In this document: one piece after another, positions 146 through 6,055 of the stretch | Layout of the letters: every line of letters begins with the position of its first letter | How positions within the stretch are numbered: position 1 is the stretch's first letter | Source: Escherichia coli | GTDB taxonomy: Bacteria; Pseudomonadota; Gammaproteobacteria; Enterobacterales; Enterobacteriaceae | DNA length: 6,055 bases | Strand: one strand, 5' to 3' | Assembly (NCBI RefSeq): GCF_048403405.1 | Contig: NZ_CP183132.1 | Position numbers and translations under genes: made by a program | Notes under the pieces: model-generated | The model's database searches: none | Told to the model about the DNA's origin: nothing | What the model saw: only the letters and a program-made list of their open reading frames with translations

Positions 146-589
146 CTTCTAGTGTAGCCGCACTCCGGCAGCCACTTCAAGTACTCTCTAAATATCTCGC
201 ACATGACTTTTACCAATGGCTGCTGCCAGTGGCGCTTTGTGGTGTCTTTTCCGGGTTGGACCCAAGAGAACAGTTACCGGAGAAGGCGCAGCAGTCGGGC
301 TGAACGGGGGGTTCCTGCATACAGCCCAGCCCGGAGCGAACTGCCTAAGTCGCCCCGAGATACCAGAAGACGTGAGCTATGAGAAAGCGCCACGTGTCCC
401 GTAAGGGAGAAAGGCGGAAAAGGTATCCGGTAATCGATATGGCGGGAACGTGGGGGCGCAGGAGGGAGCGATTCACCGGAAACGGTGATGATCTTTAAGC
501 CACGTCGGGTTTCGCCACCGCTGGCGGATTTCATGGTTGAGCCGCAAGGCTCCCACAGATGCACCGAAAAAGTGTCTGTTTTGTGAAGT

Positions 590-630
590 CCGTCAGGGGG
601 GCGGAGCCTATGGAAAAAGCGCCTCCGGCG
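590..630 (+). other. ori: origin of leading-strand DNA synthesis (RNase H processing / RNA-DNA transition region), approximate
   Basis: Conserved block gtcaggggggcggagcctatggaaaaagcgcc about 555 nt downstream of the RNAII start, homologous to the pMB1 origin point region. Confidence 0.55.
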
Positions 631-869
631 CGGCCTTTCCCGGGGTTTCGTTTTTTGCGTACATGTTCTTTCCTGGTTTATCCCCGGGTTCTGTGGATAA
701 CAGGGTTAGCGTTTTTGAGAAAGGAGAGTCCGCTCGCCGCAGCCGAACGACCGAGCGTAGCGAGTCAGTGAGCGAGGAAGCGGAAGAGCGCCTGAACTGG
801 CATTTTCTCCTTACGCATCTGTGCGGCATTTCACACCGGACATGGCGCACTTTTCATACAATCCGCACT

Positions 870-950
870 GATGCCGAATGGTTAAGCCAGTATACACTCC
901 GCTATCGCTACGTGACTGGGTCAGGGCTTCGCCCCGACACCCCAAAGGTC
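870..950 (-). other. oriT: oriT / bom (basis of mobility) with nic region; nick expected on the minus strand within 883-900
   Basis: ttaagccagtatacactccgctatcgctacgtgactgggtca…gccccgacaccc is near-identical to the pBR322/ColE1 bom region, including the rc cggagtgtatactggcttaa nic-site block and the GC-rich inverted repeat. Confidence 0.75.
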
Positions 951-1035
951 AACGGCCTGACGCGCCCTGGCGGGCTTGTCTGCTCCCGGCATCCGCTCAC
1001 AGACAAGCTGTGACCGTCTCCGGGAGCTGCATGTG

Positions 1036-1227
1036 TCAGCGGTTTTCACCGTCATCCCCGAAGCGTGCGAGGCAACTGCGGTAAAGCTCATCGGCGTGGT
1101 CGTGAAGCGATTCACAGATGTCTGCCTGTTCATCCGCGTCCAGTTCGTTGAGCTTCTCCAGCAGCGTTAATGTCTGGCCTCTGATGAAGCGGGCCATGTT
1201 AAGGGCGGTTTTTTCCTGTTTGGTCAC
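1036..1227 (-). CDS. rop: Rop/Rom RNA one modulator, 63 aa, GTG start
   Basis: Translation VTKQEKTALNMARFIRGQTLTLLEKLNELDADEQADICESLHDHADELYRSCLARFGDDGENR is essentially identical to ColE1/pMB1 Rop. GTG at 1227-1225 is preceded by ggaggcatca (SD), as in pBR322. The 87-aa ORF in the ORF track (1036..1299) is an upstream in-frame extension. Confidence 0.95.
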   Translation of the reverse strand: MTKQEKTALNMARFIRGQTLTLLEKLNELDADEQADICESLHDHADELYRSCLARFGDDGENR

Positions 1228-1258
1228 TGATGCCTCCGTGTAAGGGGGGGTTCTGTTC

Positions 1259-1615
1259 ATGGGGGTAATGATACCGATGAAACGCGAGAGGATGCTCACG
1301 ATACGGGTTACTGATGATGAACATGCCCGGTTACTGGAACGCTGTGAGGGTAAACAACTGGCGGTATGGATGCGGCGGGTCTGCCTGGGTGAGCCGGTTG
1401 CCCGTTCCGGGAAGCTGCCGACACTGGCACCGCCGTTACTGCGTCAGCTGGCCGCCATCGGGAATAACCTTAACCAGACAGCGAGGAAGGTGAACAGCGG
1501 GCAGTGGTCTTCCGGTGACCGGGTTCAGGTGGTGGCCGCACTGATGGCCATCGGGGATGAGCTGCGCCGGCTGCGTCTGGCGGTCAGGGAACAGGGGGCG
1601 CGGGATGATAGTTAA
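1259..1615 (+). CDS. mbeC: MbeC/MobC-like relaxosome accessory protein (ribbon-helix-helix); alternative start ATG 1292 (MLTIRV…)
   Basis: MLTIRVTDDEHARLLERCEGKQLAVWMRRVCL… matches ColE1 MbeC, whose truncated 5' part is also retained in pBR322. ATG 1259 has aaggggggg 8 nt upstream. Stop TAA 1613-1615 overlaps the mbeA start. Confidence 0.8.
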   Translation: MGVMIPMKRERMLTIRVTDDEHARLLERCEGKQLAVWMRRVCLGEPVARSGKLPTLAPPLLRQLAAIGNNLNQTARKVNSGQWSSGDRVQVVAALMAIGDELRRLRLAVREQGARDDS

Positions 1616-3170
1616 GTTTCATGCCAGGGGAAAAGGTGGTGGCAGTGGTCCGGTTGATTACCTGCTGGGAAGGGAGCGTAACCGGGAAGGGGCAACGGTG
1701 CTTCAGGGGAATCCGGAAGAGGTCCGGGAACTCATCGATGCCACGCCATTTGCGAAGAAATACACGTCAGGTGTTCTGTCGTTCGCGGAGAAGGAGCTGC
1801 CGCCTGGAGGGCGTGAAAAAGTGATGGCGAGCTTTGAGCGTGTACTGATGCCCGGTCTCGAGAAAAATCAGTACAGCATCCTGTGGGTGGAGCACCAGGA
1901 CAAGGGACGGCTTGAGCTGAATTTTGTCATTCCGAACATGGAGCTACAGACCGGAAAACGCCTCCAGCCGTACTACGACCGGGCAGACAGGCCGAGAATT
2001 GATGCCTGGCAGACGCTGGTGAATCACCATTACGGTCTGCATGACCCCAACGCCCCGGAGAACCGCCGGACGCTGACCCTTCCTGATAACCTGCCGGAAA
2101 CGAAACAGGCGCTTGCTGAGGGCGTCACACGCGGGATAGACGCGCTTTACCATGCCGGAGAGATAAAAGGCCGTCAGGATGTGATTCAGGCGCTCACAGA
2201 GGCGGGGCTTGAAGTGGTCAGGGTGACGCGAAGCAGTATCAGCATTGCAGACCCGAACGGCGGGAGGAATATCAGACTGAAAGGAGCGTTTTATGAGCAA
2301 TCTTTTACAGACGGGCGCGGAGTTCGAGAAAAAGCTGAAAGAGAGAGCCGAATCTACAGAGAAAATGCTGAACGACGAGTTCAGGAAGCTCGAAGAATCT
2401 GTAAACAGGGAACTGACCTCAAACGAATCTTTAATCAGGAACGCTATCAACGACCATACAACAGCCCTGAAAGAACTGCTGGAGAGGTATCAGAAAACGA
2501 CCGTCGATACGATGGACGCGCACTGGAAAACCGTACTGAAAATGAGCGTGAAACGCTGGCTGTGGCTGATTATCGTCTCAGTACTGATGTTTGCCACGAC
2601 CGGGAGTCTGCTGTGGTACCAGGGCATGAAGATAAACGCGAATATGAATATTCTCCGCGAGCAGAAAGAGAGTCTGGAGAAGCTGAACGCGAAGACATGG
2701 GGCGTGCGTTATCACGAGGACAGCAACGGACGTTTTCTGGTGTTGCCGAAGGGGATGAAAGCCGAAACGAACTGGACGAAGGACAACGGCAAACTGAACG
2801 CAGTGAGACTGGTGCAGGAGTGACAGAGCATGACGGAGCTGGAAAGACATTTGCTGAACGCATTAGAGCAACTGCAACAGGACTATATGCAGCGGCTGAA
2901 CGAATGGGAGAACGCCTTCGTGGAATTGCAGAAAATGTTTTCGCTTACGCAACGGGACAACGCGATGCTGAACGGGCGAGTCATGCAGTTGAGTCAGCAG
3001 GTGCAGCACTTGAGCGAGCGGACAGAACGCTTGAGCCAGTTATACAGCGAGAACAGGAGATAAGGGATGAACGGCTGATGCAGGAACGCGAACATGAGTT
3101 ATCTCTGGAGCGGGAGCGTCAGCCGGAAATCCAGGAGCGGACACTGGATGGCCCTTCGCTGGGATGGTGA
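1605..3170 (+). CDS. mbeA: MbeA relaxase, MOB(HEN) family, 521 aa
   Basis: MIVKFHARGKGGGSGPVDYLLG… is the ColE1 MbeA N-terminus, with catalytic Tyr19 (1659-1661) and the H97-E104-N106 motif (VEHQDKGRLELNF). ATG 1605 is preceded by gggggcgcggg. The E/R-rich low-complexity C-terminal half is typical. The ORF track's 537-aa call (start 1557) is an upstream extension. Confidence 0.9.
   Translation: MIVKFHARGKGGGSGPVDYLLGRERNREGATVLQGNPEEVRELIDATPFAKKYTSGVLSFAEKELPPGGREKVMASFERVLMPGLEKNQYSILWVEHQDKGRLELNFVIPNMELQTGKRLQPYYDRADRPRIDAWQTLVNHHYGLHDPNAPENRRTLTLPDNLPETKQALAEGVTRGIDALYHAGEIKGRQDVIQALTEAGLEVVRVTRSSISIADPNGGRNIRLKGAFYEQSFTDGRGVREKAERESRIYRENAERRVQEARRICKQGTDLKRIFNQERYQRPYNSPERTAGEVSENDRRYDGRALENRTENERETLAVADYRLSTDVCHDRESAVVPGHEDKREYEYSPRAERESGEAEREDMGRALSRGQQRTFSGVAEGDESRNELDEGQRQTERSETGAGVTEHDGAGKTFAERIRATATGLYAAAERMGERLRGIAENVFAYATGQRDAERASHAVESAGAALERADRTLEPVIQREQEIRDERLMQEREHELSLERERQPEIQERTLDGPSLGW
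2293..2823 (+). CDS. mbeB: MbeB mobilisation protein, 176 aa, one TM segment; nested inside mbeA in a different frame
   Basis: MSNLLQTGAEFEKKLKERAE…WLWLIIVSVLMFATTGSLLWY… matches ColE1 MbeB. SD aaggag lies 6 nt upstream of ATG 2293. The gene sits entirely inside mbeA at +1 offset, the known ColE1 arrangement. Confidence 0.85.
   Translation: MSNLLQTGAEFEKKLKERAESTEKMLNDEFRKLEESVNRELTSNESLIRNAINDHTTALKELLERYQKTTVDTMDAHWKTVLKMSVKRWLWLIIVSVLMFATTGSLLWYQGMKINANMNILREQKESLEKLNAKTWGVRYHEDSNGRFLVLPKGMKAETNWTKDNGKLNAVRLVQE
2830..3063 (+). CDS. mbeD: MbeD mobilisation / entry-exclusion-like protein, 77 aa; nested inside mbeA
   Basis: MTELERHLLNALEQLQQDYMQRLNEWENAF… matches ColE1 MbeD. SD aggag lies 9-10 nt upstream. 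The gene starts 7 nt after the mbeB stop, in the same frame as mbeB. Confidence 0.8.
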   Translation: MTELERHLLNALEQLQQDYMQRLNEWENAFVELQKMFSLTQRDNAMLNGRVMQLSQQVQHLSERTERLSQLYSENRR

Positions 3171-3230
3171 AACCATGAAAAATGACGTGTTCAGTGGATT
3201 AAGGCGGGCTAATGTGGCCTGTAGCATCTG

Positions 3231-3248
3231 GTTGCATAGGTATTCATG
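3231..3248. promoter_or_regulatory. ARG box (ArgR binding site) of the cer-like accessory region
   Basis: gtTGCATaggtATTCAtg: 11 of 14 core positions match the TGAAT-W4-ATTCA ArgR consensus. It lies ~105 bp upstream of the XerC arm, the spacing seen in ColE1 cer. Confidence 0.5.
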
Positions 3249-3250
3249 CG

Positions 3251-3375
3251 GTTAAAATTTATCAGGTGCGATCGCGGCAGTTTTTCGGGTGGTTTGTTGC
3301 CATTTTTACCTGTCTGCTGCCGTGATCGCACCGAACGCGTTTTGGCGGTGCGTACAATGCGACGTTATGGTAAAT
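3251..3375. other. cer: cer-like multimer resolution site: accessory sequences plus XerC arm GGTGCGTACAA (3347-3357), 7-bp central region TGCGACG (3358-3364), XerD arm TTATGGTAAAT (3365-3375)
   Basis: Both arms are identical to the ColE1 cer XerC and XerD arms as I recall them. The upstream ~100 bp (…atcaggtgcgatcgcggcagtttttcgggtggtttgttgccatttttacctgtctgctgccgtgatcgcacc…) closely matches the ColE1 cer accessory sequence. It lies between mob and the cargo segment, as cer does in ColE1. Confidence 0.8.
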
Positions 3376-3459
3376 GGAGCGGATTTTCAGGAAGGAGTGA
3401 TACTAACAACTCGAACACTGTGCAAATAATGATTTTTTTAAAATATCGGTAACGATAAT

Positions 3460-3500
3460 AAATTATTTCGTTTTACGCCGGTAATAAATATAATGTAGTT
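3460..3500 (+). promoter_or_regulatory. candidate sigma70 promoter for the cargo operon: perfect -10 TATAAT at 3489-3494, AT-rich UP-like upstream, weak -35
   Basis: ataaaTATAATgtag sits ~50 bp upstream of the ORF A start. No good TTGACA is present at the 17-bp spacing. Alternative -10 tatata at 3505-3510. Confidence 0.35.
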
Positions 3501-3543
3501 TCAGTATATAAAAAAATATATGAGGTGTCTTGTGGGAGCTTTC

Positions 3544-4596
3544 ATGAATCTTCAACAACGTATAAATAAACTACCACAATTATCATCCAGTTTTTCATTT
3601 GGAAAAGATATTGATAATATTCATTCATTTATCTTTAACGAAACTTCTAAAGATAAAATTGAAGATTTACTAAGAAAATGGGTGTCAGGCAATCAGCCCT
3701 GTGTATTTGGTAAATTGGCAAGCAAGAAAATTAAAGGGCTTGATTTCCATTTATCTATTGTAAATAGCCCCCAACTATATAATGATGATGGTCATTTGTT
3801 TGATTTTTTGCGTAATGAAAGAGTTCGTTTTAAAGAACGCGCAAGAAGAGGAGAGGTCAGTGCGCATCTCATTTATTTTATTCATCCACAACTTGCCTTT
3901 GCTCGTCCATCAGAAGAGTTAGTGGACATACAAAAATATATTTGTTCGCTGCATATGCCAGAGTGCTATCCAATAAAAGAGGATGTTATTTATACTGAAA
4001 GCGTACCATTTCAGGATAAAGATGGGCTAAAAATATATAAGGCTGGTGTTAATGTTTTTTACTCTTCTGCTCATAGAACAAGAAATCATGATAGAAGAAT
4101 ACCAGGGGGAATACTTATTTCTGTAAATGCCCCGGGGCATTTTATGAGGCTGGCGATAGAAAAAGGTTTCTATAAAGATCAAGAACAAGCGTTAGCGGAT
4201 ATTCGTAACATGACTATTCAGTCTGTTGGTAAGGGTGGGTATTCACATCCGGAAGGGATTTCTACAACATGGCATTCAGAATCTAATTTGGATCGTTTTG
4301 GATGCCCAGTGCACACCGGTAATAGTTCTTATTACAGCGGTTTTTATCATACTGATGTATTAATTCCAGGAGAATTAACTAAGGATGAAAGATTGCTCCA
4401 TGAAATAGAAAATAGTGATCCAATGATCTTCAACTGGAATGTATTGTTTTATGTTTCATTAGAAGAGTTTCCTATAGATGATCCTTATTATGGAGAGTTT
4501 ATTGGTATTCCTGTAGATGATGCATCTATGTTTTTTAACTCCTTTCAACCAAGGAAATTTGAAAACAAACCCCTTTATGAGAAAGAGGATGATTAA
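3544..4596 (+). CDS. hypothetical cytoplasmic protein, 350 aa; no recognisable family; first gene of the cargo operon
   Basis: A 1.05-kb uninterrupted frame in ~30% GC DNA, where chance ORFs of this length are very unlikely. ATG 3544 has GGGAG (3534-3538) 5 nt upstream. The ORF track's start at 3520 has no SD. No signal peptide or TM segment. Stop TAA 4594-4596 lies 1 nt before the ORF B start. Confidence 0.8.
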   Translation: MNLQQRINKLPQLSSSFSFGKDIDNIHSFIFNETSKDKIEDLLRKWVSGNQPCVFGKLASKKIKGLDFHLSIVNSPQLYNDDGHLFDFLRNERVRFKERARRGEVSAHLIYFIHPQLAFARPSEELVDIQKYICSLHMPECYPIKEDVIYTESVPFQDKDGLKIYKAGVNVFYSSAHRTRNHDRRIPGGILISVNAPGHFMRLAIEKGFYKDQEQALADIRNMTIQSVGKGGYSHPEGISTTWHSESNLDRFGCPVHTGNSSYYSGFYHTDVLIPGELTKDERLLHEIENSDPMIFNWNVLFYVSLEEFPIDDPYYGEFIGIPVDDASMFFNSFQPRKFENKPLYEKEDD

Positions 4597-4597
4597 T

Positions 4598-5464
4598 ATG
4601 ATTAAAGGAATGCTTTTTGCTTTTTTAGCAGCGTTCTCATGGGGGGCAGCTATCGTAATGAGCAAAAAAGGAGTTGAAGAACTAGATGCCGGAGGGGTGT
4701 TTTTCTGGCAGATTTGTAGTGCAGTAATACTATCTTGGATAGTTCTTTTTATAAAAAGAAAAAAACTCCCATTAAACTCAAAAGCGATACTTGCTTATGC
4801 GACAGGCGTTTTTGAACCATTCTTAGCGTATACTTTTACACTCTACGGACTTTATTTTATTTCAGCAGGAAGCGCATCAATTATTTTTTCACTTGAATCA
4901 GTGTTTATATTGGTGTTGTCTGTTCTTATTTGCTCAGTTAAAATTAATTCCCCGCAATATTTTATATTGTTCCTTATAGGTGCAATTGTTGGCAGTATTT
5001 TGGTAGCCTTGCCAGACATCAGTAATGGATCGAATAATATTGTTGGATATTGTCTTGTTGTTGCCGGTGTGTTATCGGCAGCATTTTATGTTGTTATATC
5101 GTCTCGCCTTATTAAATCGTTTGAGCCTATCACATTATTGAGCGGACAGTTGACATTCTCCCTTATACTGTCATCGCTCTTTATTTTTATATCTAAATCA
5201 TCAATTTATCTTCCGTTGGAATCCGTGATTATTGTTTTTTCATCTGGAATATTACAATATTTTTTAGCTTTTTGTTTTTACTTGAACTCCTTGCGTTGGC
5301 TCCCAGTTCATTTGGCAGGGATAATGTTGTACTTTATTCCGCTAGTTGCATTATTTTTGTCATGGTTGTTTTTGGATGAACAATTCACATTCTTACAGGG
5401 GGTAGGATTTATTGTAACTGTGCTAAGTGTATATTTTCTTAACAGAAAATACTCAGAGGAGTAA
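4598..5464 (+). CDS. EamA/DMT-superfamily permease, 288 aa, ~10 TM helices (two EamA repeats)
   Basis: N-terminal LFAFLAAFSWGAAIVMSKK matches the EamA signature (…F.WG..F…K). About 10 hydrophobic spans alternate with short loops (e.g. GGVFFWQICSAVILSWIVLFI, IVGYCLVVAGVLSAAFYVVISS, LPVHLAGIMLYFIPLVALFLSWLFL). ATG 4598 has SD AAGAGGA 8 nt upstream (ATG 4589 is also possible) and is translationally coupled to ORF A. The ORF track's start at 4517 would overlap ORF A by 80 nt and is unlikely. Confidence 0.9.
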   Translation: MIKGMLFAFLAAFSWGAAIVMSKKGVEELDAGGVFFWQICSAVILSWIVLFIKRKKLPLNSKAILAYATGVFEPFLAYTFTLYGLYFISAGSASIIFSLESVFILVLSVLICSVKINSPQYFILFLIGAIVGSILVALPDISNGSNNIVGYCLVVAGVLSAAFYVVISSRLIKSFEPITLLSGQLTFSLILSSLFIFISKSSIYLPLESVIIVFSSGILQYFLAFCFYLNSLRWLPVHLAGIMLYFIPLVALFLSWLFLDEQFTFLQGVGFIVTVLSVYFLNRKYSEE

Positions 5465-5631
5465 CATTCTGTTCAGGATTGCCCCCCGGCCTCCATCGAT
5501 ACCGTGCCAAATGCACGTAAAAAACGGGAGCGTTTCTGGTGTCGGAATGTAACCAAGGGGGTCAGAGGCGCGCTAAAACGCTCTCAGGGGAGTCAAATAG
5601 AGACGTTTGTAACAAAAAGATCAAAGGATCC

Positions 5632-6055
5632 TCTTGAGATCCTTTTTTTCTGCGCGTAATCTGCTGCCTGTAAACGAAAAAACCGCCTTGCAGGGCGGTT
5701 TGATCGAAGGTTAAGTCAGCTTGCAGACTGCTTAACCAGGTAACTGTCTTATGCGAGACGAGTCACCAAAATTGTTCTTCTAGTGTAGCCGCACTCCGGC
5801 AGCCACTTCAAGTACTCTCTAAATATCTCGCACATGACTTTTACCAATGGCTGCTGCCAGTGGCGCTTTGTGGTGTCTTTTCCGGGTTGGACCCAAGAGA
5901 ACAGTTACCGGAGAAGGCGCAGCAGTCGGGCTGAACGGGGGGTTCCTGCATACAGCCCAGCCCGGAGCGAACTGCCTAAGTCGCCCCGAGATACCAGAAG
6001 ACGTGAGCTATGAGAAAGCGCCACGTGTCCCGTAAGGGAGAAAGGCGGAAAAGGT
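5632..6055. repeat. terminal redundancy: exact copy of 1..424 caused by reading past the circular junction; plasmid unit length 5631 bp
   Basis: 5632.. tcttgagatcctttttttctgcgcgtaatc… equals position 1 onward, through …aaggcggaaaaggt = 411..424. The ORF 5847..6035 duplicates 216..404. Confidence 0.95.

Follow-up and report, generated by a model that had tools for sequence, protein, structure and literature searches.

A putative thiolate-haem oxygenase coupled to an EamA permease as cargo of a small ColE1-type plasmid

The stretch of DNA analysed here (contig NZ_CP183132.1 of Escherichia coli; its full 6,055 nucleotides are referred to as the window) represents a small ColE1-type plasmid with an AT-rich island that contains two open reading frames (ORFs): ORF A, encoding a soluble protein of 350 residues, and ORF B, encoding a permease of the EamA/DMT (drug/metabolite transporter) superfamily. 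The window is a circular permutation, in which bases 1-424 are identical to 5632-6055; given this 424-bp terminal redundancy, the true molecule has 5631 bp. It is 100% identical to pJJ1886_3 (NC_022662.1, 5631 bp), a reference record that comes from E. coli JJ1886, an H30-Rx urosepsis strain of sequence type 131 (ST131). Based on the comparisons described below, the gene pair is best explained as a conserved small-molecule module that came from a low-GC donor and occupies the cargo position of a ColE1-type plasmid. The most fitting description of ORF A itself is a divergent branch within the AglA structural class, one which keeps the proximal cysteine and lies outside PF08892 as this family is currently defined.

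The gene pair and its island

The island (3405-5470) has a GC content of 34.4%, compared with 55.4% in the backbone (425-3404) and 52.3% beyond 5470. ORF A (3544-4596, plus strand) starts with the ATG at 3544, 5 nt after a Shine-Dalgarno sequence GGGAG (3534-3538, plus strand), and its TAA stop codon ends at 4596; an in-frame upstream ATG at 3520 would give a protein of 358 residues. A single base separates this stop codon from the start of ORF B (4598-5464, plus strand; 288 residues), the Shine-Dalgarno sequence of which (GAGGA, 4585-4589, plus strand) lies within the 3′ end of ORF A, and an alternative ATG of ORF B at 4589 would make the two genes overlap. RefSeq annotates the same two coding sequences on pJJ1886_3, naming them 'hypothetical protein' and 'DMT family transporter'. 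ORF A is devoid of hydrophobic segments (maximum 19-residue Kyte-Doolittle mean of 0.9). In ORF B, by contrast, Pfam recognises two EamA domains (E = 6.8e-44), and the number of hydrophobic segments is about 9-10, corresponding to the two EamA repeats and about 10 transmembrane (TM) helices that characterise the EamA/DMT superfamily; the matches of ORF B to named NCBIfam subfamilies are weak (2A78, 58 bits with a cut-off of 230; YddG, 23 bits with a cut-off of 300). Thus, the translationally coupled pair of a soluble protein and a 10-TM EamA permease proposed in a preliminary description of this DNA is borne out.

The same description assigned the island to the place that colicin genes take in ColE1-type plasmids, in agreement with both its base composition and its flanks. 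The left boundary is marked by a putative cer-like XerC/XerD core, GGTGCGTACAA-7 nt-TTATGGTAAAT (3347-3375, plus strand), read directly from the sequence. On the right, RNAI of a ColE1-type replicon was identified at 5674-5774 on the minus strand (Rfam RF00106, 56.5 bits). It follows from these two positions that the island lies between the cer-like site and the RNAII promoter region, that is, in the place of the cea-imm-kil operon of ColE1, a mobilisable replicon as well. In contrast to a colicin operon, which has a LexA box together with colicin, immunity and lysis genes, the cargo here is a predicted metabolic enzyme with a permease: there is no LexA box in 3200-5600 (the sole near-match in the window is at 1342, with 1.8 expected by chance), and none of the window's proteins matched colicin, immunity or lysis families in Pfam. 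The absence of a LexA box and of a lysis gene had also been noted in the preliminary description.

Relationship of ORF A to the AglA class

ORF A had been left unplaced in that description, and no well-characterised family could be found for it at the sequence level in Pfam, NCBIfam, PADLOC, PHROGs or PDB sequences (the latter searched with phmmer). Neither ORF A nor ORF B matches PADLOC models at E ≤ 1, and the ORF A family profile retrieved from PDB only unrelated proteins (best E = 0.67). A word-indexed search returned 96 clusters, every one of them named 'hypothetical', with identities of 62-99% in enterics, about 53% in Algicola and marine metagenomes, and about 33-38% in Pseudomonas, Rhodopseudomonas and Steroidobacteraceae. 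When 1.84 billion representatives were searched exhaustively by HMMER with a profile of the family, 412 of them, each standing for a cluster at 50% identity, were retrieved at E ≤ 1e-3. These comprise an orthologue tier and a larger sister tier of proteins of 340-390 residues without a Pfam domain.

Elements invariant in the alignment of ORF A orthologues are C53 in QPCxFG, AHxTxNHDRRxPGGxxxSxNxPG, SxGNGG, W243 and YxxxYHTDVLxP. Residues kept across both tiers are W46, Q51, P52, C53, F55, R93, G103, F172, D183, R185, P187-G189, S193, N195, G198, Y264, Y268-D271, Y303 and G321. The cysteine of the QPCVFG motif (Q51-G56, 3694-3711, plus strand; Cys53 at 3700-3702) is invariant in 44 of 44 orthologues, and 69 of 73 proteins of the sister family have the motif. 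The sister family (P0119-P0240, 340-390 residues) retains W..QPCxFGR, DxRxPGG and YHTD and may have a function other than that of the EamA-linked tier. One of its members (locus L086, 6001-7248) resides in a mobile element with integrase, D5-primase and PDDEXK genes and overlaps a 558-aa unknown gene.

The closest known proteins are those of the YqcI/YcgG family (PF08892, 'FPC/CPF motif-containing'), haem-dependent guanidine N-oxygenases including AglA, GntA, ChmN, DcsA, Mhr24 and AmbT. The structure of AglA, reported in late 2025, revealed a new haem-binding sandwich fold and a new structural class of thiolate-haem enzymes without structural neighbours; the iron is ligated by the Cys44 thiolate, and the propionates are held by R166, K196 and R200 (PMC12866846). 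The chemistry of the family is guanidine N-hydroxylation, and its members are active with generic ferredoxin and ferredoxin reductase, and they load haem when made in E. coli (PMC12866846; bioRxiv 10.1101/2024.01.24.577118).

A protein in which both kinds of domain occur, retrieved with the ORF A family profile, is P0099, a 622-aa natural fusion from a soil metagenome that joins an ORF A-type domain (10-361) to a true PF08892 domain (418-619, E = 2.5e-47). A PF08892 profile built from homologues of this C-terminal domain recovers AglA in PDB at E = 3e-5, with Cys44 in the motif YPCYFG, to be compared with QPCVFG of ORF A; a phmmer search of PDB with the domain itself missed AglA, which was found only by the profile. 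When 117 sequences of the ORF A superfamily were aligned by hhalign with about 120 PF08892 sequences plus AglA, scores of 36.5-37.7 were obtained (P = 1.3-1.9e-4; 82-107 columns), and Cys53 was placed on Cys44. Control scores were 11.6-24.9 for 14 unrelated profile pairs, 14-15.5 for reversed profiles and 13.0 ± 2.2 (maximum 18.7) for 40 column shuffles. The significant alignment is limited to the N-terminal 110 residues of ORF A.

Structure prediction extends the comparison to the remainder of the domain. We compared AlphaFold2 models of ORF A (predicted local distance difference test score, pLDDT, 87.6; predicted template modelling score, pTM, 0.89) and of the canonical PF08892 protein P0253 (pLDDT 82). 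The order of elements is the same in both, H-[Cys]-H-E-H-E-H-E-E-[RR loop]-E-H-H, where H stands for helix and E for strand. In ORF A these are H36-50, Cys53, H54-60, E68-73, H82-101, E107-113, H124-137, E151-158, E161-173, the HDRR loop 182-185, E189-195, H197-206 and H213-227; in P0253 they are H51-65, Cys71, H72-80, E83-90, H94-113, E120-127, H133-152, E172-174, E177-185, the RxARRF loop 190-195, E199-204, H205-213 and H217-232. The spacing from the cysteine to the RR loop is 132 residues in ORF A and 122 in P0253, and Cys53 follows a helix and stands at the N-terminus of the next one, in the same place as the haem cysteine of the family. Thus, the predicted structure of ORF A has the AglA-type alpha/beta sandwich fold, and the FPC/YPC motif of the proximal cysteine is present in it as QPC with invariant P52 and C53, from which haem ligation by Cys53 is predicted. 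A Foldseek search of PDB with the ORF A model returned haem domains of nitric oxide synthase (NOS) as top matches alongside AglA (E ≥ 0.011), and a search of viral structures returned none. The NOS oxygenase domain is a thiolate-haem arginine N-hydroxylase, i.e. it performs the chemistry proposed here for ORF A, and like ORF A it has a Trp a few residues before the Cys.

The second conserved motif, HDRR (H182-R185, 4087-4098, plus strand), forms a loop between two strands, equivalent to the RR loop of PF08892, and includes the superfamily-conserved D183 and R185. The latter is invariant in the superfamily and is a candidate haem-propionate ligand, placed on AglA R166 only in a low-confidence extension of the alignment, in a region not significant by itself. 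Since the middle region alone does not align, the equivalence of R185 and R166 rests on this extension together with the topology. A third motif, YHTD (Y268-D271, 4345-4356, plus strand), is conserved in the superfamily and belongs to a conserved C-terminal extension of about 120 residues (with GNGG, W243 and YHTD), which stands where PF08892 proteins have a short L2/CPF tail. The YHTD motif might be a distal or substrate-pocket element or, alternatively, a metal site. H269-T270-D271 and the conserved H182 (4087-4089) resemble a 2-His-1-carboxylate site, and HxD is kept in both tiers. The same extension has a 'CP' pair (C252-P253, 4297-4302), present in most, though not all, orthologues, which recalls the C-terminal CPF motif of the 'FPC/CPF motif-containing' YcgG proteins; it lies in a low-confidence loop of a non-homologous region that cannot be aligned with them. 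Apart from this extension, ORF A differs from the YqcI/YcgG proteins in its length (350 residues versus about 240-275), in its QPC instead of FPC/YPC and in its identity to AglA of about 8%.

Taken together, these results make it probable that the fold and the cysteine of ORF A are homologous to those of the AglA class. Several results weigh against this assignment. ORF A has no Pfam match at E ≤ 0.1, and none of 44 family members matches PF08892 even at E ≤ 10, whereas the C-terminal domain of P0099 is found with E = 2.5e-47 in the same library. A smaller hhalign comparison, of the 44-sequence ORF A family with 30 PF08892 sequences, was not significant (E = 0.37), the sole aligned segment being the cysteine motif and the preceding helix. 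The middle region by itself (residues 138-240, including the proposed propionate Arg) gave no alignment to PF08892, and no Foldseek match to PDB fell below E = 0.01. In addition, the superfamily-conserved HxD (H269-D271) and H182 could mark a non-haem metal site. The last point leads to an alternative in which ORF A uses an AglA-like scaffold without haem, with Cys53 as a nucleophile or metal ligand and H182 and H269-x-D271 forming a hydrolytic site or one for non-haem iron; its substrate would again be a small metabolite that EamA handles, but the chemistry would be different. The conservation of the HxD motif and of several His, Asp and Tyr residues throughout the superfamily speaks for such an enzyme, as do the 120-residue extension absent from PF08892 proteins and the confinement of the significant alignment to the N-terminal 110 residues. 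We nevertheless consider it rather improbable, because Cys53 shares its PCxFG context and its structural position with the proven haem thiolate of AglA and ChmN, and because the RR loop is retained.

Co-occurrence with EamA and other neighbouring genes

To survey the context of ORF A, one genome per species was scanned, which yielded 63 loci spanning alpha-, beta- and gamma-Proteobacteria, Actinobacteria, Cyanobacteria, bacteria of the candidate phyla radiation (CPR) and Acidobacteria. EamA genes were detected by searching six-frame ORFs with a hidden Markov model built from five EamA genes adjoining ORF A. An EamA gene lies within 700 bp of ORF A in 33 of the 63 species loci, on the same strand within 4 kb in 7 others and elsewhere in the locus in 2; in 14 loci with at least 1.5 kb of flank on each side no EamA gene was found, and 7 loci are truncated and uninformative. 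Actinobacteria account for 11 of the 14 loci without EamA, 8 of them from Nocardia. Among informative loci outside the Actinobacteria, EamA is directly adjacent in 32 of 36 (tally from record titles). The co-conservation on which the preliminary description had made its reading depend is thus observed, with the same operon in 7 loci beyond those with an adjoining gene. In the Nocardia subgroup without EamA within 6 kb (L041, L043, L044, L046, L054, L056, L058 and L062), one locus (L041) has the ORF A relative between a TetR regulator, a PNPOx-like gene and an ASCH-domain gene.

The arrangement of the pair varies. ORF A precedes an overlapping or coupled EamA gene in enterics, Algicola, Burkholderiales, Steroidobacteraceae, Cyanobacteria and Saccharimonadales; EamA precedes ORF A in Pseudomonas; and in Rhodopseudomonas and Rhizobiales EamA and a MarR-family gene are divergent from ORF A. 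MarR-family genes are a frequent third member of these loci. In one metagenomic locus (L087, 4955-9775) a LysR gene is divergent from a series of ORF A, EamA, a Rieske ring-hydroxylating oxygenase and MarR, so that a second type of oxygenase is joined to the pair. Pairwise identities of ORF A and EamA are correlated (Mantel r = 0.75, reached in 0 of 2000 permutations), a correlation to which the shared species phylogeny contributes. The coupled pair is retained in a 54%-identical marine variant and in a 75%-identical E. coli variant, the latter standing beside toxin-antitoxin genes of a kind common on plasmids. Between the two E. coli variants the ratio of nonsynonymous to synonymous substitution rates (dN/dS) amounts to 0.093 in ORF A and 0.118 in EamA, which indicates purifying selection on each of the two. 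The frame of ORF A is intact, and the possibility of a pseudogene, considered in the preliminary description, finds no support in this ratio or in the near-identity of the matching records described below.

AT-rich two-gene islands of small plasmids are often defence or addiction modules, and one member of the sister family is found in an integrative, phage-like element. A plasmid-selfish or defence role unrelated to metabolism (addiction, anti-phage activity or exclusion), or neutral cryptic cargo, appears highly improbable all the same: ORF A has no PADLOC or PHROG match, many free-living bacteria have orthologues of it on the chromosome, beside regulators and metabolic genes, and both genes of the pair are under purifying selection.

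Some of the neighbouring genes point to a substrate. Seven actinobacterial species loci have an operon of ORF A, a gene similar to dimethylarginine dimethylaminohydrolase (DDAH) and arginine dihydrolase, a pyridoxal phosphate-dependent decarboxylase of the ornithine/diaminopimelate/arginine type, a saccharopine-dehydrogenase-like gene and EamA. The second gene of this operon matches the NCBIfam models of dimethylargininase (247 bits) and arginine dihydrolase (227 bits), and one such actinobacterial locus (L023) is preceded by an ornithine-cyclodeaminase-like gene. The same enzymes occur in two Amycolatopsis loci, which end in MarR and GNAT genes and in which no EamA was found. In a Saccharibacteria locus (L030) an arginase-family gene begins 4 nt after ORF A. 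This is the two-enzyme logic of the DcsA-DcsB step of D-cycloserine biosynthesis, in which the haem protein DcsA makes N-hydroxy-arginine and the arginase homologue DcsB releases hydroxyurea. DcsA has been named as a member of the haem-binding family (bioRxiv 10.1101/2024.01.24.577118). The likeness has its bounds: the arginase pairing occurs in one lineage only, the plasmid module has no hydrolase, and the ORF A family is not PF08892.

In the locus of P0099 (L075, 2530-4398) the genes after the fusion encode an unknown protein of 347 residues and a MatE efflux pump; genes for an OprB porin and a MOSC-domain protein come further on. Proteins of the MOSC and mARC kind reduce N-hydroxylated compounds. 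The P0099 cluster may make a doubly N-oxygenated product. With DDAH-like, arginase-like and YqcI/YcgG proteins, three independent kinds of guanidino-group enzyme therefore recur beside ORF A, and nearly all loci include an exporter, which is usually EamA and in one case MatE. From this gene context an arginine-type substrate is a tentative proposal, to which we give a little less than even weight. The alternative idea of a link to sulfur or cysteine was dropped, as cysDN in Pseudomonas and a serine/threonine dehydratase and a RimJ-like GNAT gene in Algicola look like unrelated neighbours.

Arginase-like and DDAH-like proteins are catabolic enzyme types too, and some DMT proteins are importers. 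The pair could accordingly be read as an uptake system, in which EamA imports a guanidino compound and ORF A begins its breakdown for nitrogen. We find this very unlikely, given that the nearest named DMT models, matched weakly, are exporters (YddG, and 2A78 of the carboxylate/amino acid/amine family), that the P0099 cluster has a MatE efflux pump in place of EamA, and that a lone monooxygenase on the plasmid would release no usable nitrogen.

A somewhat better case can be made for inducible detoxification, although we regard it, too, as unlikely: ORF A would modify a toxic guanidino or amino compound that enters the cell, for instance an antimetabolite of arginine or a toxin from plants or microbes, and the compound or its product would be expelled by EamA, making the pair a non-classical resistance determinant. 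Many proteobacterial loci have a divergent MarR-family gene (nearest NCBIfam models MprA and BilQ) with ORF A and EamA, and GNAT acetyltransferases are neighbours of ORF A in several loci. The arrangement is reminiscent of pecS-pecM, in which a MarR-family regulator gene lies beside, and often divergent from, an EamA/DMT efflux gene and responds to toxic exudates (PMC6391409, PMC12288460). Unlike pecS-pecM, ORF A loci always include an enzyme gene translationally coupled to the pump, and the plasmid copy has lost, or never had, a regulator. Furthermore, the characterised relatives of the fold are all biosynthetic N-oxygenases, ORF A heads biosynthetic-looking operons (with decarboxylase, dehydrogenase and exporter) in some lineages, and the fusion to a second N-oxygenase domain in P0099 fits sequential biosynthetic oxidation better. 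For the pair as a whole we favour a producer over a detoxifier.

Possible function of the module and the plasmids that carry it

We propose that ORF A is a haem N-oxygenase acting on an arginine-like metabolite and that ORF B exports the product, a mechanism which, taken as a whole, we consider equally likely to be right or wrong. Cys53 in W-x4-QPCxFG would bind haem as the proximal ligand; electrons from ferredoxin or flavodoxin reductase systems of the host, together with O2, would drive the reaction; and ORF A would N-oxygenate a guanidino or amino metabolite, the likeliest being L-arginine or a close derivative. The coupled EamA permease would export the product and thereby protect the producer. 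The plasmid version appears to be a bare core without regulator or tailoring enzymes, the product of which would be a simple N-oxygenated primary metabolite. As it lacks the MarR gene of many chromosomal copies, its expression is probably constitutive and multicopy. This proposal is in keeping with the minimal small-molecule module suggested in the preliminary description and narrows its modification-and-export idea to guanidino-type chemistry. YqcI/YcgG proteins occur in nonribosomal peptide synthetase or phosphonate clusters; ORF A, in contrast, is habitually paired with an EamA exporter.

Some observations tell against the mechanism. No ferredoxin or reductase gene was found on the plasmid or beside most chromosomal copies of ORF A, and arrangements of MarR with an exporter are typical of inducible efflux or detoxification. 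Moreover, most lineages are without arginine-linked neighbours, which are confined to about 9 actinobacterial species, one CPR genome and one fusion; the enterobacterial module has none.

If ORF A does belong to the AglA class, it represents a second large branch of that class, unrecognised by databases, with 412 clusters at 50% identity distributed over Proteobacteria, Actinobacteria, Cyanobacteria, CPR bacteria and Acidobacteria. The fixed EamA partner of this branch implies that a metabolite derived from an arginine-like compound is secreted or effluxed by many bacteria and has so far escaped description. What is new here is that an identity is proposed for the previously unplaced ORF A and that its link to an exporter is seen in several bacterial phyla. 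In the literature no paper mentions the two RefSeq proteins, and none links hydroxyarginine with EamA. The smallest version of the module, with two genes natively expressed in E. coli from a 5.6-kb multicopy plasmid, is unusually easy to test, and the proposal, if true, would provide a function for a very common 'cryptic' Col-type plasmid.

The position of the island invites a bolder version of the proposal, a 'chemical colicin', in which ORF A would make an N-hydroxyguanidine from host arginine and EamA would secrete it as an antimetabolite or as an arginase-inhibiting, nitric oxide (NO)-releasing molecule. N5-hydroxy-L-arginine has been described as a natural arginine antimetabolite, and N-omega-hydroxy-arginine as an arginase inhibitor and NO precursor. 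Speculatively, either compound would suit a cargo that, in the place of a colicin, serves in competition or acts on the host. We regard this version as improbable; were it true, E. coli (including pandemic ST131) and Salmonella would possess a small-molecule weapon or host-modulating factor where relatives of the plasmid carry protein colicins. Related MOBP5/ColE1 plasmids of ST131 have ColE or ColK genes instead (PMC4270462). Papers on ST131 plasmids, PMC4270462 among them, have classed pJJ1886_3 as MOBP5/ColE1-like and given its cargo no function. An 11.8-kb ST131 plasmid, pBIDMC38_1, is reported to be nearly identical to pJJ1886_3 but to have a Cfr10I restriction-modification system (PMC4270462).

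The backbone has mobilisation genes for MobC/NikA-like, relaxase, MbeB and MbeD proteins (Pfam), and a Rop gene is annotated on the identical record pJJ1886_3. The plasmid thus combines the RNAI/RNAII replicon, rop and MOBP5 mobilisation genes of ColE1-type mobilisable plasmids with a cer-like site. In full, the cer-like core directly preceding the island reads GGTGCGTACAA-TGCGACG-TTATGGTAAAT, with a central region of apparently 7 nt, as against 8 nt in cer of ColE1. The sole candidate promoter upstream of ORF A is a weak sigma-70-like site, CTAACA-16-AATAAT (3403-3430, plus strand), whose 9 of 12 matches are no better than chance in AT-rich DNA. The frequency of promoter-like sites is not above chance, and no inverted repeat or operator was found upstream of ORF A.

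The pair was found in 118 of 5426 complete E. coli genomes (about 2%), at 160 places, all on plasmids and none chromosomal; of the 124 matching records, only one has a best match below 99% identity. In PLSDB, it is present on mobilisable plasmids of about 5.6 kb from E. coli, Salmonella and Klebsiella, isolated from humans, poultry, cattle and wastewater. Fragments 100% identical to the plasmid genes were also seen in Pseudomonas sp. A-RE-19 (L012) and Rhizobium wenxiniae HU50 (L016, a 429-bp contig), reflecting either assembly contamination or a wider host range of the plasmid. Two 5.3-kb E. coli plasmids (H54, NZ_CP018114.1; H55, NZ_CP069687.1) have only the first 283 bp of ORF A and look like deletion derivatives that lost the module. 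Larger variants of the plasmid, of 7.1-7.6 kb, are also among the matches, together with an 11.3-kb dimer.

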